A stretch of DNA of 64,000 nt from a virus, in the IMG/VR virus record IMGVR_UViG_3300025645_000053, positions 1 to 64,000 of that record; one strand, 5' to 3'. The translations under genes and the position numbers were made by a program. Under the pieces are notes generated by a model. The model made no database searches, had not been told where the DNA came from, and worked only from the letters and a program-made list of their open reading frames with translations. Shown here piece after piece: positions 4,433 through 36,954 of this stretch (positions are counted from its first letter, which is position 1; each line of letters starts with the position of its first letter).

Positions 4433-4879
4433 ATGATACCATTGACTACCATTCTTAAAATGTGGGAAAAGGACTGTGTAATTGACGAAGTGAATTTAGA
4501 TAACGCTTCTTTAGACGGTGCAAAACTGCATGCAAAATATTTAGAACTCCATTCAGTTTATAAACTGCAGGCACGACGTAAAGACATGGAGTTTAAAGTA
4601 CTTCTTAAAAACAAGTACCTATGGTTTGCCGGTAAATTAACAAGAGATGAAATTGATGAACTTGGTTGGGGATACGATCCCTTAAATGGATTAAAAGTTC
4701 TCAAAGGCGATATGGATAAATTCCTTGAGGCTGATAGAGACATTCAAGAAATGCAAGCTCAAATTGAATACAATAAAGTAGTAACAGAGACTCTTGACGA
4801 AATTATTGGTAATATCCGATGGAGAAGCTCTACAATAAAAAATGCAATCGAGTGGAGAAAATTCACTAGCGGAGTATAA
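4433..4879 (+). CDS. uvsY: Recombination mediator UvsY
   Basis: LHAKYL and IKNAIEWRKF; precedes uvsW. Confidence 0.88.
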   Translation: MIPLTTILKMWEKDCVIDEVNLDNASLDGAKLHAKYLELHSVYKLQARRKDMEFKVLLKNKYLWFAGKLTRDEIDELGWGYDPLNGLKVLKGDMDKFLEADRDIQEMQAQIEYNKVVTETLDEIIGNIRWRSSTIKNAIEWRKFTSGV

Positions 4880-4884
4880 GGATC

Positions 4885-6387
4885 ATGACCGAAGTTGTTC
4901 AAGTTAGGCTTAAAGATTATTCGCAGTTGCTAATTGAAACTGATCATAGCACTGGTGCCGAGTTGACCGACTTCTTCTCGTTTTTTGCTGAAGGTTATAA
5001 GTTCCATCCTGCATATCGTAACAAACAATGGGATGGACTCCTGCGCCTTTATAACCATCGTGATAAACAATTACCAATTGGGTTATATGCGTACTTACAG
5101 AATTTTTGTGAGGCCCGTGGATACATTCTAGAGGTTTTAGATAACCAACTGTATGGATTACCAATAGCCGATAACAAAGTCCCACCATCGCTTGATTACC
5201 TTAACAGTCATACTTTTACTAGCCGCGGTAAACCTATCGAACATCGTGACTATCAGCTAAGGGCAATAACCACAGCCATTACAGAGCATCGGACATTATT
5301 ATTGTCTCCAACGGCATCTGGAAAATCGCTCATCATATATTCCATTATGTTATATTACATGGAGAATTATGATAAAGATATTCTAATAATCGTCCCTACT
5401 ACGTCATTAGTGAACCAAATGTACGGTGATTTTGCTGATTATAGTGAGTTTGACCAAGCGTTTTCTGCTGAAGACAGTTGTCATATGATTTACTCAGGTA
5501 AAGAGAAAAACACAGGGAAGCGCGCGGTCATCTCAACTTGGCAATCAATATATAAATTAGGTAGTGCGTGGTTCAAAAAGTTTGGTATGATAATCGGTGA
5601 TGAAGCACATACGTTTAAAGCAAAGTCTTTAGTATCAATAATGGGGAAGTCAACCGAAGCACAATTCAGAATTGGAACGACTGGCACAATTGATAATATA
5701 GCAGTAAATAAACTGGTCCTAGAAGGTTCGTTCGGTCCTGTCTATAGAGTGACATCAACAAAGGCGCTAATGGACGAAGGTTCACTTGCGGCTCTTGACA
5801 TAAAAATACTAGCACTTAAATATCCTGACGTTGAAAGCAAGATAGTTTCAAAACTCAAATATCCTCAGGAAATGGACTATATCGTTACCCATGAGAAACG
5901 AAATAACTTTATAGCAAATTTAGCAATAGCACAAACAGGTAACACCTTAATATTATTTCAGTTTGTTGGTAAACACGGCAAGCCATTACATGAACTGATA
6001 AATACAAAGGTAGGCGACGATCGTGAAGTCTTTTATGTATCAGGTGAAACTGATGCAAATTTACGAGAAGACGTTCGACGAATTACTGAAACAAAATCAA
6101 ATGCAATATTGGTATGCTCACTCGGAACTTTTAGTACTGGAGTGAATATAAGAAACCTACACAATATTATATTTGCATCACCGAGTAAGGCACAAATAAA
6201 GATCTTACAATCAATAGGAAGAGGATTAAGAAAAAGCGATAATGGTCAGGATACCAAGTTATTTGATATTGCCGATGATTTCCATTGGAAAAGTAAAAAG
6301 AATTATACATTAAGACACGCTGCTGAACGTGTAAAGATTTACGCATCCGAGAAGTTTAATTTTAAAATTCACGAGGTAAAGATGTAA
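4885..6387 (+). CDS. uvsW: SF2 helicase UvsW
   Basis: SPTASGKS, DEAH, QSIGRGLR. Confidence 0.96.
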   Translation: MTEVVQVRLKDYSQLLIETDHSTGAELTDFFSFFAEGYKFHPAYRNKQWDGLLRLYNHRDKQLPIGLYAYLQNFCEARGYILEVLDNQLYGLPIADNKVPPSLDYLNSHTFTSRGKPIEHRDYQLRAITTAITEHRTLLLSPTASGKSLIIYSIMLYYMENYDKDILIIVPTTSLVNQMYGDFADYSEFDQAFSAEDSCHMIYSGKEKNTGKRAVISTWQSIYKLGSAWFKKFGMIIGDEAHTFKAKSLVSIMGKSTEAQFRIGTTGTIDNIAVNKLVLEGSFGPVYRVTSTKALMDEGSLAALDIKILALKYPDVESKIVSKLKYPQEMDYIVTHEKRNNFIANLAIAQTGNTLILFQFVGKHGKPLHELINTKVGDDREVFYVSGETDANLREDVRRITETKSNAILVCSLGTFSTGVNIRNLHNIIFASPSKAQIKILQSIGRGLRKSDNGQDTKLFDIADDFHWKSKKNYTLRHAAERVKIYASEKFNFKIHEVKM

Positions 6388-25739: not shown

Positions 25740-27092
25740 ATGGATTTAAAAACACTAAGCGACGATGAGCTGCGAGCTTTACATTATGAATACAGTAAAA
25801 AGTATTCAACGCTTGACAACCAACAAATGAGTATCAAAATCCTAAACTTATTGGGCCTCTAATCAGGAATGATTAGATGAGAATCGGGTGAACTCAGGGA
25901 AGGCTTTAATATGCTAATCCTGAGCCAAGACCTTTATTATGTAAAGGTAAGGTGCAACGACTATCCGAAAGGAGTAGAGATCAAGTGGTCTCGAAGCGCC
26001 CGACAGCCAGACCGGCTGATGATATAGTCTGATCTTATACGAAAGTATAAGCTGGGTTCGTCCCGGGATATGATTAACGCTCGTATCCGAACATCATGAA
26101 TGAACAGTTTGTATGGTGCGATGGGTTCAGCTTACTTCAGATATTTTGATTTGCGAATGGCTGAAGGCATTACATTGTATGGTCAGTTATCAATTCGTTG
26201 GGCTGAGAAATCGTTTAACAACTTCATTAATAAAATCATGGGTACTACCAAATGTGATTATGTTATTGCTGCTGATACTGATTCTAATTATTTAGATTTT
26301 GGCCCACTTGTCGAAAAACTCGGATTAGCAAAAACTAATGATACTAAAGGTATTGTTGATATTATCGACAAAATGTGCAGCGATCAGTTTGAACCAATGA
26401 TTGCTAAATGTTATGACGATCTTGCTAAATACATGCATGCCTATCAGAACAAAATGGTTATGGAACGTGAAGTAATTGCTGATCTTGGTATATGGACTGC
26501 AAAGAAACGTTATATACTAAATGTACATAACTCTGAAGGTGTATCATTTAAAGAACCTAAACTAAAGATCATGGGTATCGAAGCAATTAAATCTTCAACA
26601 CCAGCAATATGTCGTGATGCTTTAAAGAATATCTTCAAGGTTATAATGACTGGTTCTGAGCTTAAAACCCGTAAGGCTATTACTGACTTTCAAGAGTTCT
26701 TTCATGCTCAGCCGCCTGAAGCAGTATCGTTTCCACGTGGAGTTTCTGATATTGTTAAATGGCGCGATGGTGACGGATATAAGTCAAGATGTCCTATACA
26801 TGTACGCGGCGCTATAATGTATAATGTTGGTATTGAGCAGAAGAAACTTAAAAAGTATACTGCAGTTCGTAATGGCGACAAAGTTAAGTTCTGTTACCTT
26901 AAGTTGCCTAATCCCATCAAGGAAAATGTTATTTCGTTTCCTGATTATTTACCGCCTGAGTTAAATTTGAATGCGTATGTTGATTATGATAAGCAATTCA
27001 GTAAAACCTTTATAGATCCAATTGAACCTGTACTTAAGGCTATCGGTTGGTCAGTTGAAGAGCAGTCGAGTTTGGAGGATTTCTTCGGTTAA
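25740..27092 (+). CDS. 43: DNA polymerase gp43 subunit C; spliced join(25740..25843,26099..27092), 365 aa
   Basis: Splicing restores QMSIKIL-MNSLYG (motif B); ADTDS motif C, KKRY, C-terminal clamp-binding SLEDFF. Confidence 0.92.
25844..26098 (+). mobile_element. ORF-less group I intron (255 nt, IA-like with P7.1/P7.2)
   Basis: P1 CCU|AA/UUGGG with U-G at the splice site; P3 UCGGGUG/CGCCCGA; P4 CUCAGG/CCUGAG; P7 GACUA/UAGUC; P9 GAAA hairpin; terminal G 26098. Confidence 0.93.
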
Positions 27093-29634: not shown

Positions 29635-30054
29635 ATGAGTAAAGATTGGTGTAAAGACATTGCTGAAATGCACGAGAAATATAAAGTTCGCGGTTGGGTA
29701 GCAAACAATCCTGAGAAACTTAAAGAGTTTTTGGCGTTTCGTATCATGTTTTTAGAAGAAGAACTTAATGAAACATATGCCGCGCTTGAAGCAAAAGATG
29801 CTGAAGAGCTTGTAGACGGTTTGATTGATTTGTGTGTTGTCGCAATTGGTACGCTTGATGCGTTCGCTATCGACCCATACAAAGCTTGGGACAGAGTTCT
29901 TAAAGCCAATATGGCAAAAGAAGTTGGTCAGAAAGCTACGCGACCTAACGCACTTGGTCTTCCTGATTTGATAAAGCCGACAATGGAATCGCACGGTTAT
30001 GATTGGACTGCACCATCGCATGAAGGTAATCACGGTTTGTTCACTAAGATATAG
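29635..30054 (+). CDS. MazG/PRA-PH-like all-alpha NTP pyrophosphohydrolase (candidate dCTPase/dUTPase)
   Basis: EEELNE...ELVDGLID acidic metal-binding pattern. Confidence 0.8.
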   Translation: MSKDWCKDIAEMHEKYKVRGWVANNPEKLKEFLAFRIMFLEEELNETYAALEAKDAEELVDGLIDLCVVAIGTLDAFAIDPYKAWDRVLKANMAKEVGQKATRPNALGLPDLIKPTMESHGYDWTAPSHEGNHGLFTKI

Positions 30055-30915: not shown

Positions 30916-31383
30916 ATGACTGAAAGATCATCAGTAAAAGTATTACAAGAATGCATTGAATTGCAGACCGCAAAGTCTCGTGATTATCAAAACGCTAAAT
31001 CGACCGTTCGTCAAGCTGACTATTATCCGCATGGCGTAAATACCATTATGGATATTATTCATGCTAAAACCCTTCGTATACGTTCTGTTATCGAAGCAAT
31101 GGAAAATGATCCTGATTATAAACCTAACTTTGAGTCGATGGAAGATTCACTTAAAGACATGATTAACTATGCTTCGTTTGCAGTTGCTTATTCACGTGGT
31201 GAAGTTGACGGCCAGTCTACCGATCGCGATTTCTTAAACCGTCAACTTAATGCGCCTGTATCTGATTCTGAGCCGTCTACTCTTTTAAAACCATTTACTG
31301 ATGAAGATATAGACGCTATGAATATGTTTCCAACGCATTCTTATGAAATTTTAAAAAATAACTGTGAAGAGCAGATGATATGA
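30916..31383 (+). CDS. Nucleotide-modification-associated domain protein (Nmad1/DUF1599-like)
   Basis: KSRDY, KTLRI, ESMEDSLKDMINYA; coupled to the dCMP hydroxymethylase gene. Confidence 0.75.
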   Translation: MTERSSVKVLQECIELQTAKSRDYQNAKSTVRQADYYPHGVNTIMDIIHAKTLRIRSVIEAMENDPDYKPNFESMEDSLKDMINYASFAVAYSRGEVDGQSTDRDFLNRQLNAPVSDSEPSTLLKPFTDEDIDAMNMFPTHSYEILKNNCEEQMI

Positions 31384-32126
31384 ATATAGATGACATACGC
31401 GACCATTTCGTTGATGAACTTGAATGGCACCAAGAAACAATTGATCGTGGTGGTAATAAGACGCTTGAAATGGTTGGTGCAAGTTTTATTGCTGACGATC
31501 CATGTATCTTCGGTACGCCTAATACTGAATACATTGACGCTGAGATCCGTTGGTATTTAACACAATCAACTAATGTTGGTACGCTTGCAAATATTTATGG
31601 CAAAACACCAGTTGCTTGGCAGGCAACCGCAAATCTTTATGGTGAAATAAACTCTAACTATGGCCATCTAATATTTGCTGAAAAGTTCCATAACCAATTC
31701 AAACAATGCTTAAATGAGTTAAAGGGTAATCCGTTTTCGCGTCGTGCTATCATGGTTTATAACCGTCCGTCTATTTGGATTGAATATAACGAAAACTCTA
31801 AAAACGATTTCATATGTACTAATGCGGTATCATATTACATTCGTGATAATATGTTACAAGCTGTAGTTCAAATGAGAAGTAATGATTGTTGGGCAGGTTA
31901 TAGAAATGACTATGCGTGGCAAATGTACGTAATGGAATTGCTTAAAGACAATTATAATGAGTCAACTAATTCAGATATTAAAATAGGCAACCTTCATTGG
32001 CAAGTACAAAATTTGCACGTCTATGAGAGAAACTTTTACTTAGTTGATCATTATAGTAAAACTGGTGAACACCATATATCAAAATCTGATTACATATCAA
32101 CGTATCCTAAAAGTGAGTATATCTAA
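31380..32126 (+). CDS. 42: dCMP hydroxymethylase (gp42-like, thymidylate synthase fold)
   Basis: INSNYG, DFICTN (catalytic Cys), MRSND, GYRNDYAW (Asp typical of dCMP specificity), LHVYERNF. Confidence 0.9.
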   Translation: MNIDDIRDHFVDELEWHQETIDRGGNKTLEMVGASFIADDPCIFGTPNTEYIDAEIRWYLTQSTNVGTLANIYGKTPVAWQATANLYGEINSNYGHLIFAEKFHNQFKQCLNELKGNPFSRRAIMVYNRPSIWIEYNENSKNDFICTNAVSYYIRDNMLQAVVQMRSNDCWAGYRNDYAWQMYVMELLKDNYNESTNSDIKIGNLHWQVQNLHVYERNFYLVDHYSKTGEHHISKSDYISTYPKSEYI

Positions 32127-32569
32127 TGAGCAGTCTTTGGAACGAACGGTTTCTAGCGTTAGCACGTGAAGTAAGCACTTGGTCCAAAGACCCATCAACT
32201 AAAATCGGAGCGGTTGCAGTACGTGACCGCCAGATTCTTTCGGTGGGTTATAACGGGTTCCCACGTGGAGTTGAAGACACTGCCGAACGTTTAAACAACC
32301 GTGAAACAAAATACAAATATGTAGTTCATGCAGAACAGAACCTTATATACAATGCTGTTAATAATGGCGTCAGTTTAAAGAATTCTGCTTTATATGTTTG
32401 GGGACTACCCGTTTGTAGCGAATGTGCAAAGGGAGTTATTCAAGCAGGTTTCTCAAAAGTTTATTGGGCAACCGATTCTAATAAAACTATTGACAAACGA
32501 TGGGAAGTATTATATAATAGTACTGTTGAAATGTTTAATGAAGTTGGAATAGAAGTATATGCCTTATAA
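32126..32569 (+). CDS. cd: dCMP deaminase
   Basis: SKDPSTKIGA, GYNGFPRG, HAEQN, CSEC. Confidence 0.93.
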   Translation: MSSLWNERFLALAREVSTWSKDPSTKIGAVAVRDRQILSVGYNGFPRGVEDTAERLNNRETKYKYVVHAEQNLIYNAVNNGVSLKNSALYVWGLPVCSECAKGVIQAGFSKVYWATDSNKTIDKRWEVLYNSTVEMFNEVGIEVYAL

Positions 32570-32909
32570 TGGAAACACTCTTGTAGTTGATTTTGATGAT
32601 ACGCTTTGCATACATCCACATGATGACAAGTCTAACATCGCTTGCGGTAAACCAAATTACGATCTTATAAGTGAAATTAATAGGCTCTTCGATAAGGGCT
32701 TTGACATATTCATATATACTGCACGCGGTCACTTCAGCGCCGACAATCGAGCTGACGCTGAACATAAATACCGTAATGTTATTGAAGTATGGCTAATGGA
32801 ACATTCTGTTAGTTACACAAAGCTTTCGTTTGATAAGCCTTATGCAGTTTATTACATTGATGATAAAGCAATAAGGCCAGATGAACTATACTTATTGGAG
32901 AAGTTATGA
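32559..32909 (+). CDS. Capless HAD-family phosphatase
   Basis: DFDDT, YTARG, KP, YIDDKA. Confidence 0.88.
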   Translation: MPYNGNTLVVDFDDTLCIHPHDDKSNIACGKPNYDLISEINRLFDKGFDIFIYTARGHFSADNRADAEHKYRNVIEVWLMEHSVSYTKLSFDKPYAVYYIDDKAIRPDELYLLEKL

Positions 32910-34432
32910 TTGGCATAATACCTGCTGCAGGTCGCGGCGTAAGATTCAAAGAACTTGGTAAACAATACAGTAAAACCATTTTACCGTATAAAGAAGTACC
33001 TATCCTCATTCATCAAATTAAATGGCTAGAGGATTCTGGCTGTAACGATATTAGAGTTGTAGTAAACCATCAAGAAGAAACTGTACACGATATGTTGGCG
33101 ATGTATGGAAAGACTCAAGTTAAAGTTGTACGTCAACAAGAACACAATGGTTTATCAGGTGCTATCTTTGCGGCTTTAAAACCAGAAGATAACGATTCGG
33201 TATTGATTGTCCTTGGTGATATTGTTGTTAAGTCGGATGCGTCTAAATATTTCAATGAAAACTTTGTGTCTGTCATTGAAGTAGAAGACTATGCTAGATG
33301 GTGTATGGTTCAAACATCAGCGAATAAGATTTCTACATTTATTGATAAACCTACGGAACGGCCTGATACCAATCTTGCTTTAAGCGGTGTATATCATATT
33401 CTCGATTCGGTTAACTTATATGAGTTATTACGTGAGCAATTGCAACATGAAGAAACTAAGATCGCAGGCGAATTTCAGTTAAGTGGTGTTTTACAATCAA
33501 TTGCTGATTGGGATCATATGATAACTGTGTCACTTGGGCATATTGACTTTGGGACTCTTGAAGAATACTTAAGTAATCGTTCAGTTAAAAACTCAAGATC
33601 TTTTAATAATTTGTACGTCGATGATGTAACGGTTCGAAAGTCGTCTGAAACACATGGACAGAAATTAATAGAAGAATTCAATTGGTATAATAACTTGCCC
33701 ATGGGACTTACATTAAACACGCCAAGAATGCTGTCACACGAGTTCTTTGATCCGCATCAATGCGTATGTTACGTAATGGAAAAGATATTGGCACCAACGT
33801 TCCGCGAAATATATTTGTTTCTTGATACTTCAACCGAAACTTGGAGAACAATCTTCAATTCATCGTTTAGGCTATTGAACAAGATGGAGTCATATGGACA
33901 ACCTAACAACTTTATGGACACGGTTGTTAAAAAGACGGTTTCACGGGTAAACGATATTAATCTTGCAATTAATCACGACATAATAAACAAATTCATTATA
34001 ACATTAGAAGACGCTGTTGCTAAACATGAGCATGTACCAACATTAATGCACGGCGACTTTTGCTTTAGCAATCTGATGTACGATTTCAATTCTGACCGTG
34101 TTACTATGATAGATCCAAGAGGTCAGCTATTTGGCGATCATTATTACGAAGTAGCTAAGTTGATGCATTCAGCGGTATATAATTATGATATCATTGATTC
34201 TGAACTCTATGTTAAAAACGGTAATGATGTTCGTTTGTATTCAAAGGGTAAAGAAGAGGTTGCGGCTGAGTTCATGCGCATTCTAAAGAATAATTACAGC
34301 GATGAAGATATTCGTTACATTAAGATTATTGTTGCCAGTTTGTTCTTAAGCATGATACCTTTACATTCGCACAGTAAAACTAACCAAGAACAATATTATA
34401 AAATATTTAAAGATATCTATTTACATTTATAG
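32906..34432 (+). CDS. Sugar nucleotidyltransferase fused to an APH/choline-kinase-fold kinase
   Basis: GIIPAAGRGVRF...K, LGD, DFGT; C-terminal HGDFCFSN, IDPRG. Confidence 0.88.
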   Translation: MIGIIPAAGRGVRFKELGKQYSKTILPYKEVPILIHQIKWLEDSGCNDIRVVVNHQEETVHDMLAMYGKTQVKVVRQQEHNGLSGAIFAALKPEDNDSVLIVLGDIVVKSDASKYFNENFVSVIEVEDYARWCMVQTSANKISTFIDKPTERPDTNLALSGVYHILDSVNLYELLREQLQHEETKIAGEFQLSGVLQSIADWDHMITVSLGHIDFGTLEEYLSNRSVKNSRSFNNLYVDDVTVRKSSETHGQKLIEEFNWYNNLPMGLTLNTPRMLSHEFFDPHQCVCYVMEKILAPTFREIYLFLDTSTETWRTIFNSSFRLLNKMESYGQPNNFMDTVVKKTVSRVNDINLAINHDIINKFIITLEDAVAKHEHVPTLMHGDFCFSNLMYDFNSDRVTMIDPRGQLFGDHYYEVAKLMHSAVYNYDIIDSELYVKNGNDVRLYSKGKEEVAAEFMRILKNNYSDEDIRYIKIIVASLFLSMIPLHSHSKTNQEQYYKIFKDIYLHL

Positions 34433-34477: not shown

Positions 34478-35722
34478 ATGGGTCGCACGTACGTGATCGG
34501 GAAGATCGGCAAGTCTATAAAATTTAAGCCTAGCACGTGGGGTGCTATCGGCGGAGATAATGAAGCACCCACACTATATCTTAAGTTAGCTGAACTTAAT
34601 CCTGATGATACTTTTATCATGATAGGCAAAAGCGATCTTTATAAGATGCGTGGCTTGCCCACAAATCTTCATGATGCCTGGGCACATTACACGAAAGGTG
34701 AATCTGATGCCATAGCGTTTATAACTAATCATCTGAAGAATACTAAGGTTGATGCTGGAATTATGGTAGCTGGTCCAACTGGCGACGTAAACTTTCAAGA
34801 AAGGATATACACTCTATCTTCGATTAAAGCAGGTAAACCACAACTAGCCAAAACTCTGTTTATGCACGAGAATTACAGCGGTCCTATTTATGATTATCTT
34901 AATGATAGCATGATACCTTGGATAATGATTAACAATGATCCGCGGTATTTAAAGCTTGGCCGAGATATGTTTAATATGCCAAAAGAAATACTTTCACAAT
35001 ACGATTCAGCTAAATTGTATCGTCACATATCTTCATATGAAGACCAAACTCTGTTAGTCGATCATCGAGTACAATATAAGTATGCTGGTGTAGAAAAAGT
35101 CTTTCTTATTAATAAAGAATTGGTTAATATCGAAAAGACTAAGAAGTTTATGGTAGTTCTTAATGAAGGAAGTAATGGTGTTAGTTCGCGCTATAACAAG
35201 TTAAAAGAATATGTACTTGACCACGTTGAGGACGTTGATATTTATGGCAAATGGGATGAAGACACTGTAAAAGGCGATAAGCGCTTTAAAGGGTCGATTA
35301 AGTTTGAGGAACTGCAGCAGATGTTACCTGAGGTCAAATATTCCTTTATGATATCTATTCGAGACGGTTGGGTTACAATGAAAGTTTGGGAATTGATTAG
35401 CAATGGTATTATACCGTTCTTGCATCCAAATTATGACGACCAACACCATATTGCAGTACCCGAGTTTTTGAGACTTAGTAAACCTGAAGAGTTACACGAG
35501 CGCATTGAGCAACTTGAAAACGACCCTGTCTTATATAATAAGATATTACAGGAATGCCAATATCTTATTACACCAGATGATACAAGCGGCAAAGTATTAT
35601 GCGATAAGATTACTAGTACAATAAATAACTATCGAAGCTCTACTACAGGAACCAAATCTTATGATGAAGTTCTTCAAGAAATAGCCGATGATAGTAATGA
35701 TTTAACGCACTTCTTTGGATGA
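34478..35722 (+). CDS. GT-B glycosyltransferase (DNA beta-glucosyltransferase-like)
   Basis: NDPR, IYGKW, TMKVWE..GIIPF; locus context. Confidence 0.75.
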   Translation: MGRTYVIGKIGKSIKFKPSTWGAIGGDNEAPTLYLKLAELNPDDTFIMIGKSDLYKMRGLPTNLHDAWAHYTKGESDAIAFITNHLKNTKVDAGIMVAGPTGDVNFQERIYTLSSIKAGKPQLAKTLFMHENYSGPIYDYLNDSMIPWIMINNDPRYLKLGRDMFNMPKEILSQYDSAKLYRHISSYEDQTLLVDHRVQYKYAGVEKVFLINKELVNIEKTKKFMVVLNEGSNGVSSRYNKLKEYVLDHVEDVDIYGKWDEDTVKGDKRFKGSIKFEELQQMLPEVKYSFMISIRDGWVTMKVWELISNGIIPFLHPNYDDQHHIAVPEFLRLSKPEELHERIEQLENDPVLYNKILQECQYLITPDDTSGKVLCDKITSTINNYRSSTTGTKSYDEVLQEIADDSNDLTHFFG

Positions 35723-36954
35723 TTAATAAAATGAAAAATGATTATAGTTGGGCCCCTCACATACCGCTTATTGGCGGCCTCCCACTTGGCGCAGAAGCAG
35801 CACTAGGTAAAGCACCTAAATTTGTATCAAGTCTTGATGGGTTTTGGGCTAATGATAGTCTTTATATGAACCATCAGAACGAAACGCTGTCTCGTGGAAT
35901 AGACTACCGACCTTTAGACCCAGGCGAACGCAGTTTTGTTGAAAAGGTTAACATTGTTGTATCAACACCACCATGCGCAGGTTTATCACAATTGAATACT
36001 GGTAAAGCTAACTCTGCAGCAAAAGGTGCTGATGCCGAAAAGAATCAGTTTATGTACATCGCGGCTGAACAGGCAATGAAGTGTTATGATGCCGATGTAA
36101 TCGTTGGCGAGAATGCTCCTGCGCTATATACAAATAAAGGAAAGCCAGTTGCGGATAAGCTTTTACAAATTGCACGTGATAATGGGTATTCTTTCTCATT
36201 GTATAAAACAACTACCTCTTTACATGGTATTCCTCAGAATCGCGACCGTACGTTCTACACATTTTGGAAAGGCGATAAAGCACCAATTCAATCATGGTTT
36301 AACGAATCACGTAAAAACTTCCCTGATTACTTGAAAGAAGTAACCAATGAAATGTCTCACCAAAGCGACATTATCAATGATAAAATCGGTACTGGCGAAT
36401 CGTATTATAACTTCATTCAGTATAAGAACCCTGGCGAAAATCCTCGTGATATTGTGATTGCGAATAATTGCTCAACTGCATTCAATTATGTTAGGCGCGG
36501 TGGCTTCTTACAGGAAGCGATTGACTACTTTGAAGCGATTGATGATACAAAAGGCTTGCATTTAGCAACACATGCTAAAATGAAATTCTCTAAAGGCTTA
36601 GGCATTTGGGATGGTTCAACTCACGTATTCAATGAATGTATGAATGCATGTATCAGTCGTAACATGAATGATACAATTCATCCAGTGCATGACCGTTCAA
36701 TGACTATTCGCGAAGCATTACATATGATGGGCTTTCCGCATAACTTCAGTCTCCCTGGTGGAAAACGTAGTGTACCGTTTATTGCTCAAAACGTTCCGGT
36801 ATGTACTGCAGCGTCAATGGTCGGTGAAGCAGTTAAGTTTTTAAATGGCGAATTGGAATTATCTGATAGTGATTTTGTTAAACAAAACAATCATCATCAA
36901 CGAATAGATGCAGGCAATATTGCAACAAACACATTAGAACAATTCATTGCGTAA
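35719..36954 (+). CDS. Atypical C5-cytosine methyltransferase-fold protein
   Basis: PPC (IV), ENA (VI), QNRDR (VIII), TIRE..GFP (IX); divergent motif I (PLIGG) and motif X (AQNVP). Confidence 0.85.
   Translation: MINKMKNDYSWAPHIPLIGGLPLGAEAALGKAPKFVSSLDGFWANDSLYMNHQNETLSRGIDYRPLDPGERSFVEKVNIVVSTPPCAGLSQLNTGKANSAAKGADAEKNQFMYIAAEQAMKCYDADVIVGENAPALYTNKGKPVADKLLQIARDNGYSFSLYKTTTSLHGIPQNRDRTFYTFWKGDKAPIQSWFNESRKNFPDYLKEVTNEMSHQSDIINDKIGTGESYYNFIQYKNPGENPRDIVIANNCSTAFNYVRRGGFLQEAIDYFEAIDDTKGLHLATHAKMKFSKGLGIWDGSTHVFNECMNACISRNMNDTIHPVHDRSMTIREALHMMGFPHNFSLPGGKRSVPFIAQNVPVCTAASMVGEAVKFLNGELELSDSDFVKQNNHHQRIDAGNIATNTLEQFIA

Follow-up and report, generated by a model that had tools for sequence, protein, structure and literature searches.

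An essentially virus-only clade of C5-cytosine methyltransferase-fold proteins with an altered cofactor pocket, encoded next to a DNA glycosyltransferase gene

The window analyzed here comprises positions 1 to 64,000 of the IMG/VR virus record IMGVR_UViG_3300025645_000053 (78 kb, 43% complete), which stems from a marine T4-like phage. It encodes a protein of the C5-cytosine methyltransferase fold (hereafter MT) directly downstream of a homologue of the T4 DNA beta-glucosyltransferase (hereafter GT). MT belongs to a real, well-defined and widespread variant of this famous enzyme fold. According to motif alignment, its base-handling residues are complete, and the features by which the fold binds S-adenosylmethionine (SAM) are replaced. 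The clade is linked to genes expected to place 5-hydroxymethylcytosine (hmC), and sugars attached to it, in phage DNA. We tentatively favor a role of MT in the further processing of hmC or sugar-hmC in nascent phage DNA over plain methylation.

Fold, catalytic residues and cofactor pocket of MT

The membership of MT in the C5-cytosine methyltransferase fold was confirmed by sequence profiles and by structure prediction. Residues 18-352 match the Pfam family PF00145 (DNA_methylase) with 67.8 bits against a cut-off of 22, and the protein also matches phrog_116 (DNA methyltransferase; E 7.9e-23). The AlphaFold2 (AF2) model, computed with 34 homologues as input, has a mean pLDDT of 91.6 and a pTM of 0.89, and its sole disordered stretch is the catalytic loop (residues 92-97). 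Using this model, Foldseek retrieved M.HaeIII, DNMT1, ZMET2, the prophage enzyme 3G7U, M.HhaI and CmoX (8YF3), all with a probability of 1.00. The best matches were M.HaeIII, DNMT1 and M.HhaI (TM to target 0.63-0.71), CmoX ranked 16th, and Dnmt2 structures were also among the matches. The protein itself is divergent, as a phmmer search with the MT sequence alone against all PDB sequences gave no match at E<=0.01. The family profile matched solved C5-methyltransferases chiefly over motifs IV-VIII and IX-X, with CmoX in fourth place (E 1.9e-7).

The family is large. Its homologues number 1670 at E<=1e-5, and an exhaustive HMMER search gave 409 cluster representatives at E<=1e-30. The latter amount to about 400 clusters at the 50% identity level, and the family is present on hundreds of IMG/VR contigs. 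The annotation given by source pipelines is site-specific DNA-cytosine methylase. For the conservation analysis, we aligned 261 relatives, taken from the closest 120 proteins and from 150 representatives of clusters formed at 50% identity. The insert resembling a target recognition domain (TRD) was the least conserved part, as in ordinary methylases.

The recognizable motifs of MT (HIPLIGG at 14-20, TPPCAGLS at 83-90, GENAP at 130-134, PQNRDRTF at 172-179 and IAQNVPV at 355-361) follow the same order as in C5-methyltransferases. The catalytic cysteine, Cys86, is kept in 254/254 aligned relatives. The preceding Pro85 is found in 219 of them and is replaced by Val, Ile, Leu or Phe in about 13%; for example, the MT of the cultured Pseudoalteromonas phage vB_Psh_XG4 has Pro-Val-Cys rather than Pro-Pro-Cys. 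Besides the nearly or fully invariant residues of motifs VI and VIII (Table 1), Gln173 (257/261), His169 (259/261) and, in motif IX, Arg326 (258/261) and Glu332 (255/261) are conserved throughout. As judged from these residues, the apparatus for flipping out a cytosine and for adding Cys86 to its C6 is complete in MT.

The cofactor side looks different, and all statements on it rest on motif alignment. In motif I, position 15 is Ile, Val, Gln, Met or Leu in the family profile, never Phe and never aromatic, and position 17 is Leu in 245/248 relatives, replacing the first Gly of FxGxG, while Gly19 and Gly20 are kept. In the motif II region, Ser38 (228/252) falls on the Glu of AVEID in 3G7U, and the next candidate for the missing acid, position 40, carries an acidic residue (Asp or Glu) in just 106 of about 250 sequences. 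Ser38 is followed by Phe42 (233/249), Asn45 (in 242 relatives) and Asp46 (in 226). In motif X, which reads (A/T/C)-Gln-Asn across the family, Gln357 is present in 257/261 members, with Arg at this position in a single one (1/261). Counted along the alignment, Gln357 sits on the Asn of the GN in ZMET2 and on Arg350 of CmoX. By this alignment, three SAM-binding features of the family (motif I, the motif II acid and the Gly-Asn of motif X) are replaced in the MT clade, which leaves a sharp signature of PLIGG, S38, F42, ND45-46 and QNVP.

Further residues near the pocket have become invariant in this clade, namely Asn93, Asn109, Met112, Tyr113 and His169 in addition to Phe42, Asn45 and Asp46, together with a KNxWMY block. 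The mean frequency of the top residue is 0.58 in the N-terminal cofactor half and 0.61 in the catalytic core. Since the replacing residues are as fixed as the catalytic ones, and the N-terminal half matches the core in conservation, the pocket appears to have been rebuilt under selection and not lost. A pseudogene or decaying methylase was ruled out on the same grounds.

An initial annotation of this gene, made from the sequence alone, had described a C5-methyltransferase-fold enzyme with intact PPC, EN and QxRxR motifs, in which both SAM-contacting motifs deviate (PLIGG and AQNVP). Both parts of this description are borne out, the deviant residues being nearly invariant across the family, and the loss of the motif II acid adds a deviation to those it had listed. 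It had also argued that changes in motif X can alter cofactor use, and this argument has gained a natural precedent. The motif X residue (Asn304 in HhaI, Arg350 in CmoX) lies against the group delivered to C5, and Arg350, at the position of Gln357, binds the carboxyl group of carboxy-SAM and selects this donor, so that R350N abolishes activity (PMC12783734). For the reaction itself, it had proposed that MT may activate or edit hmC, use another cofactor or act on residual unmodified C, and these candidate reactions are weighed below.

Gene neighborhood and distribution of the MT clade

The MT gene is part of a predicted cassette for the synthesis and glycosylation of hmC (Table 1). The start codon of MT overlaps the stop codon of GT as ATGA, and the GT product aligns with T4 beta-glucosyltransferase (1BGT) over 256 residues (103-358; E 1.5e-7) and matches phrog_7922 (E 1.6e-10). 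A gp42 orthologue located 3.6 kb upstream of MT keeps the Asp of RNDYAW, aligned to RNDYAW of the T4 enzyme, which specifies dCMP and not dUMP. The architecture of the nucleotidyltransferase-kinase fusion is shared by Thanatos TH1_060 and RB69 ORF052_053c, which are presumed to supply UDP-pentose (PMC12838424). Because a gp42 orthologue, accessory nucleotide genes, a sugar-activation fusion and a GT occur together, the genome is expected to carry glycosylated hmC made before replication. In many related loci, the Nmad1/DUF1599 gene found directly upstream of gp42 recurs along with MazG-like and gp42 genes.

Table 1 Features of the window discussed in the text. Positions count from the first nucleotide of the window; residue numbers refer to MT.
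Feature	Position	Strand	Evidence or remark
C5-cytosine-methyltransferase-fold protein of the PLIGG/QNVP clade, essentially virus-only (MT)	35719-36954	+	411 aa; PF00145, AF2, Foldseek
Altered motif I, I15-P-L-I-G-G20 (canonical F-x-G-x-G-G)	35761-35778	+	S-G-V-G-G in the aligned 3G7U sequence
Rebuilt motif II region: Ser38 for the ribose-binding Glu, then Phe42, Asn45, Asp46	35830-35856	+	HMMER alignment to 3G7U
Motif IV, P84-P85-C86, catalytic cysteine	35968-35976	+	aligns with PPC of ZMET2 and CmoX
Motif VI, E131-N-A-P	36109-36120	+	Glu131 261/261, Asn132 258/261
Motif VIII, P172-Q-N-R-D-R-T-F179, preceded by invariant His169	36232-36255	+	Arg175 and Arg177 261/261
Altered motif X, A356-Q357-N-V-P360 (canonical G-N-S/A-V-P)	36784-36798	+	aligned to ZMET2 and CmoX 8YF3
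C-terminal tail of MT, L-E-Q-F-I-A (NTLEQFIA)	36934-36951	+	resembles DNA polymerase tail
DNA beta-glycosyltransferase homologue, GT-B (GT), ends ...LTHFFG	34478-35722	+	phmmer to T4 1BGT
Nucleotidyltransferase + APH-type kinase fusion (sugar activation)	32906-34432	+	PF12804/PF00483, PF01636
Small HAD-like phosphatase	32559-32909	+	phrog_1238, 6.3e-21; kept in cassette of related loci
dCMP deaminase	32126-32569	+	PF00383, 5.3e-18
gp42-type dCMP hydroxymethylase	31380-32126	+	E 6.9e-74 to T4 dCH 1B49, full length
Nmad1/DUF1599 protein	30916-31383	+	PF07659, 24.4 bits, just under the cut-off of 25
MazG/PRA-PH-type NTP pyrophosphatase, candidate dCTPase	29635-30054	+	PF01503, 2.1e-8; recurs upstream of gp42 in related loci
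Family B DNA polymerase, C-terminal piece, ends SSLEDFFG	26100-27092	+	reference for the tail motif

The linkage extends well beyond the window. We scanned IMG/VR three times, for the close clade and for two subclades at about 36% identity, and obtained 230 loci, whose contexts are metagenomic fragments. With isolate genomes and the window's own record, this set grew to 233 loci, or 151 after removal of identical MT sequences. Upstream sequence of at least 1.5 kb is available for 129 loci, and 83 of these have a beta-GT homologue within 3.3 kb upstream of MT; in 52 loci the GT ends at most 60 nt from the MT reading frame. A gene of the thymidylate synthase (TS) family occurs within 10 kb of MT in 65 loci, and it is of the dCMP-specifying Asp type in all of them (65/65; Asn type, 0). 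When 14 records without such a nearby gene were searched as a whole, an Asp-type homologue was found elsewhere in 7/14, among them the two records with a completeness of at least 94%; the remaining seven are fragments of 15-65% completeness. For comparison, a gp42-like gene is present in 967/50,697 isolate phage records (1.9%). In the loci and records covered here, MT thus goes together with a viral dCMP-type TS homologue, yet it is an optional addition to hmC pathways.

With respect to this neighborhood, too, the initial annotation has held up. It had noted the overlap of the MT gene with a glycosyltransferase gene and had predicted that C5 is already substituted in this genome. The latter agrees with the gp42 orthologue and its Asp, the MazG-like gene and the dCMP deaminase gene, as far as can be read from sequence. 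It had further asked whether the clade travels with gp42 and GT genes or is frequent in phages lacking gp42, and the Asp-type genes and upstream GT homologues counted above speak strongly for the former.

MT is essentially a viral protein. Among 185,579 prokaryote species, represented by one genome each, only seven matches were obtained, all on contigs of marine metagenome-assembled genomes, and the ESM Atlas clusters neighboring MT are 94-100% viral. In isolate records, tblastn detected MT in only six, comprising vB_Psh_XG4 and the group of cyanophage S-TIM5. The genome of vB_Psh_XG4 (PP712099.1, unannotated; locus L002, 5363-6580) carries a gp42-type gene, a HAD gene, a nucleotidyltransferase-kinase gene, a GT and a second GT, followed by MT. 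The S-TIM5 group forms a distant branch (32% identity) with the same signature (IIPLVGG, CQNVP). In S-TIM5, MT lies 3 kb from a gene annotated as 'ThyA' (JQ245707.2, 140905-141741, corresponding to 4676-5512 of locus L001 on the minus strand), whose product has an Asp at the specificity position. This 'ThyA' belongs to the classical TS lineage (E 8.5e-32 to a bacterial TS) and reads GVPLDMF against GVPFNIA, with Asp in place of the dUMP-specifying Asn. Because of this Asp, S-TIM5 may produce dCMP modified at C5, either in place of dTMP or in addition to it.

Other recurrent neighbors of MT are dCMP deaminase, replication genes of the T4 type and sugar-nucleotide genes, the last comprising kinases, nucleotidyl- and cytidylyl-transferases, HAD genes, a second GT and an epimerase/dehydratase. 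In 44 dereplicated loci, this NAD-dependent epimerase/dehydratase gene lies between GT and MT (PF01370, 1.3e-42 at 5109-6239 of locus L111). The epimerase and the kinase, nucleotidyltransferase and cytidylyltransferase genes that vary among subclades suggest that marine phages put different sugars on hmC. Searches for TET/JBP (PF12851) gave no match in the window's own record or, in a second search that had no positive control and covered records that may be fragments, in five related records. For CmoA (TIGR00740), neither the own record nor any of five related records, of which two have a completeness of at least 94%, gave a match. As neither partner was found in the six records searched, a CmoA-coupled pathway was rejected, and a TET-coupled one is considered unlikely.

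Sixteen relatives are longer than MT. One of them, P0278 (889 aa, an ENA metagenome protein), combines a 5-hmdU-DNA-kinase helical domain (PF18723, 42.7 bits, residues 225-360) with an MT domain (548-840) that is typical of the clade (IIPLVGG, VCPCAGLS, LAQNVPS). By its domain matches, this fusion links the MT clade to enzymes working on 5-hydroxymethyl groups in DNA. Other relatives of 750-1465 aa, among them P0271, P0279 and P0211, have an IIPLIGG / VCPCAGLS / AQNVP domain joined to C2H2-like fingers, a CXXC finger and long tails rich in Lys, Arg and Glu. These proteins look eukaryotic, which may mean that eukaryotes, or their viruses or transposons, have acquired the clade. A fusion of GT and MT was not found among the sixteen, and the extension of P0271 did not match the GT profile (hhalign probability 0.3%).

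Candidate reactions of MT

A first hint on where MT could act is given by its C-terminus. We compared the ends of all stop-to-stop segments of the window that are 80 residues or longer, and the pattern L-x-x-F-(F/I)-x closes only 3/137 of them: the family B DNA polymerase piece (SSLEDFFG), GT (NDLTHFFG) and MT (NTLEQFIA). Across the loci, such an end is present in 81/151 MT proteins and 49/98 GT homologues, compared to 1/50 dCMP deaminases and none of the gp42 (0/63), UvsX (0/40) and nucleotidyltransferase-kinase (0/33) proteins. Polymerases of the T4 family bind the gp45 clamp through a C-terminal tail of this kind. Since MT and GT share the tail with the polymerase, this suggests, by analogy, that both are tethered to the sliding clamp and work on nascent DNA. 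The shared tail would also point to phage DNA as the substrate of MT, against RNA or host DNA.

In vitro, C5-methylases are able to act on hmC without any cofactor, either by releasing formaldehyde (dehydroxymethylation) or by exchanging the hydroxyl group with thiols or selenols, in each case via an exocyclic methylene. To our knowledge, these reactions are the only known route by which a C5-methyltransferase fold acts on C5-substituted cytosine, and we know of no dedicated natural enzyme described for it. As this is the sole known chemistry of the fold on hmC, we favor hmC or sugar-hmC processing as the best single explanation for MT, while judging it somewhat short of probable. According to this proposal, the clade would descend from C5-cytosine DNA methyltransferases and act on DNA that the phage itself has just replicated, with a putative clamp-binding tail keeping the protein at the fork. 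There, MT would flip out a cytosine that is already substituted at C5, either as hmC or as its sugar adduct. Cys86 would attack C6 while Glu131 and Arg175/Arg177 hold the base, as expected from their conservation. The rebuilt SAM pocket (Leu17, Ser38, Phe42, Asn45, Asp46, Gln357) would accommodate the C5 side chain, a non-SAM co-substrate or both. In place of 5-methylcytosine (5mC), the reaction would then yield hmC that has been processed further, for instance through exchange or editing at the 5-methylene, with an exocyclic methylene as the intermediate. The proposal builds on the complete base-handling apparatus, the remodelled and conserved pocket, the association with genomes expected to modify C5 before replication, the tight coupling of MT with GT, the near-restriction to viruses, the shared tail and the P0278 fusion. 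A more specific version, which we consider doubtful, is that MT is a dedicated natural enzyme in which, after addition of Cys86 to C6, the 5-CH2-O group departs and a co-substrate in the pocket traps the methylene. This would yield an undescribed hypermodified cytosine common in T4-like phages of the ocean, as a counterpart of the kinase/aGPT-Pplase route to hypermodified thymine.

Several observations weigh against the processing of hmC by MT. About 900 enterobacterial hmC phages with gp42 lack MT, and Enterococcus phages carry the pair of GT and nucleotidyltransferase-kinase without it. Because both groups manage without MT, it is not needed for hmC glycosylation as such. The linkage to GT could simply reflect co-expression of DNA-modifying enzymes associated with the fork. 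The tail pattern is loose, was written after the three tails had been seen and matches 10% of background segments. Full replacement of C by hmC is deduced from the gene content of a record that is 43% complete, and the fusion to the kinase helical domain (HMUDK_hel) is seen in a single protein. Finally, an adenine could still be held between Phe42 and the aliphatic or hydrophobic residue 15, and two thirds of the relatives (162/241) have Asp or Asn at position 60. For this reason, the predicted pocket could be compatible with an adenosine-containing donor, including SAM or an analogue. As a separate observation, in the Enterococcus phages 9183, TJE4 and Planchet (86 kb), homologues of GT and of the nucleotidyltransferase-kinase fusion, each with 30% identity, are adjacent, and in one copy the annotation reads dUTPase-related hypothetical protein.

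The main rival to hmC processing builds on such a donor. MT could be a patch or maintenance enzyme riding on the clamp, which alkylates residual bare C with an unusually bound SAM or analogue, so that none is left for C-specific nucleases or host restriction. The catalytic set is complete for activating C5 of an unsubstituted cytosine, and the clamp-type tail recalls clamp-tethered maintenance methylation, of which DNMT1 with PCNA is the known case. Such an enzyme would also explain why the clade is paired with both hydroxymethylase-type and TS-like Asp-type enzymes. Moreover, Phe42 may match the adenine-stacking Phe48 of CmoX, whose motif X change re-tunes the donor while the SAM scaffold is kept (PMC12783734). 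However, the Phe and Gly of motif I, the motif II acid and the motif X Asn are replaced throughout the MT family, and CmoX keeps all but the last of these. A CmoA-type donor synthase was not found in the six records, and T-even phages manage without a patch enzyme. We therefore regard this role as possible but not likely.

A different donor is assumed if MT is a cytosine hydroxymethylase or one-carbon transferase at the DNA level. It would then back up gp42 after replication, with a non-SAM electrophile (for instance a methylene bound to folate or a free aldehyde) as the donor. That the clade is so strictly paired with dCMP-type TS homologues would fit, as would a pocket rich in newly invariant polar residues (Asn45, Asp46, Asn93, Asn109, Gln357), and C5-methylases reportedly add aldehydes to C5 in vitro, according to work from the Klimasauskas laboratory. 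We nevertheless consider this reaction improbable, since the MT sequence does not resemble any folate-binding site and nature offers no precedent, and partners of the S-TIM5 type may make 5mC rather than hmC.

Equally improbable in our estimation is that MT is an ordinary orphan anti-restriction C5-methyltransferase with lineage-specific SAM binding, which would be linked to hmC genes merely by the shared early DNA-metabolism region of T4-like phages. The source annotation, the score above the Pfam threshold and the TRD-like insert, which is the most variable part as in sequence-specific methylases, are in line with this. Yet an hmC genome offers no C5-H to methylate, the nearby TS-family genes are without exception of the Asp type, and the deviant residues hardly vary among 261 members and about 400 clusters at 50% identity, in a protein for which the single-sequence search detected no solved C5-methyltransferase at E<=0.01. 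Least probable of all is a target other than phage DNA (host DNA, or RNA as for Dnmt2) or a non-turnover reader protein that binds hmC: the Dnmt2 structures among the Foldseek matches and the relatives fused to eukaryote-like C2H2 and CXXC fingers would allow for it, but the strictly conserved nucleophile and acid/base residues argue for catalysis, and the polymerase-like tail and the coupling to GT for nascent phage DNA.

If MT acts on C5-substituted cytosine or uses a non-SAM donor, this would be a new reaction type for a fold that is heavily studied in epigenetics, and it would point to a previously unknown DNA base in abundant marine viruses. Enzymes of this sort become tools: T4 beta-GT, TET, carboxymethylation of the CmoX type and 5mC-selective deaminases serve the mapping of 5mC and 5hmC. 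If MT turns out to be a plain methylase instead, hmC phages would leave cytosines to methylate, and SAM could be bound without the textbook motifs. As two carriers are in culture, vB_Psh_XG4 and S-TIM5, the reaction is directly testable.

Comparison with known systems

Our literature search found no publication on the MT clade, and the MetaGPA paper does not mention methyltransferases. A glycosyltransferase survey by Weigele, Saleh and colleagues mentions methyltransferases, without comment, as neighbors of ThyS-associated GT-B genes. Phage pathways that combine a C5-methyltransferase with 5mYOX/TET and GT enzymes (PMC8256090; bioRxiv 10.1101/2023.12.21.572611) resemble the cassette described here in that a gene of the C5-methyltransferase family stands beside DNA GT genes. 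Their methyltransferase, however, makes 5mC for oxidation by TET, whereas here hmC would be made by gp42 before replication, and TET was not detected in the six records.

CmoX (8YF3; PMC12783734) is, like MT, a phage protein of the C5-methyltransferase fold with a changed motif X residue, which in CmoX redefines the group put on C5. For the SAM scaffold, CmoX keeps Phe25, Glu47, Phe48 and Asp69, in addition to Arg350; the MT clade is without the Phe and the Glu and has the Gln. The motif IV strings are SPPC in CmoX and TPPC in MT. CmoX is paired with CmoA and an amide ligase, the MT clade with gp42-type enzymes and GT. MT was rejected as a carboxymethyltransferase of the CmoX type, given the Gln instead of Arg at position 357 and the lack of a CmoA match in the six records searched.

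With the SAM-dependent C5-methyltransferases M.HaeIII, M.HhaI and DNMT1, MT shares the fold, the motif order, the Cys of PPC, the Glu of ENx, QxRxR and motif IX. In contrast to these enzymes, the clade has no Phe in motif I, Leu for its first Gly, Ser for the motif II Glu and (A/T/C)QN in motif X, and His169 before motif VIII, Phe42, Asn45, Asp46 and the KNxWMY block are its own. The setting differs as well, being an hmC genome and not a restriction-modification system. The cofactor-free reactions on hmC involve the same covalent Cys-C6 chemistry that the MT residues would support, although they are only side reactions of SAM-dependent enzymes in vitro. Unlike the window phage, none of T4, RB69 and Thanatos has an MT-like gene in its glycosyl-hmC pathway; what these pathways have in common with the one in the window is the gp42 orthologue, the dCMP deaminase, the beta-GT homologue and the nucleotidyltransferase-kinase fusion.

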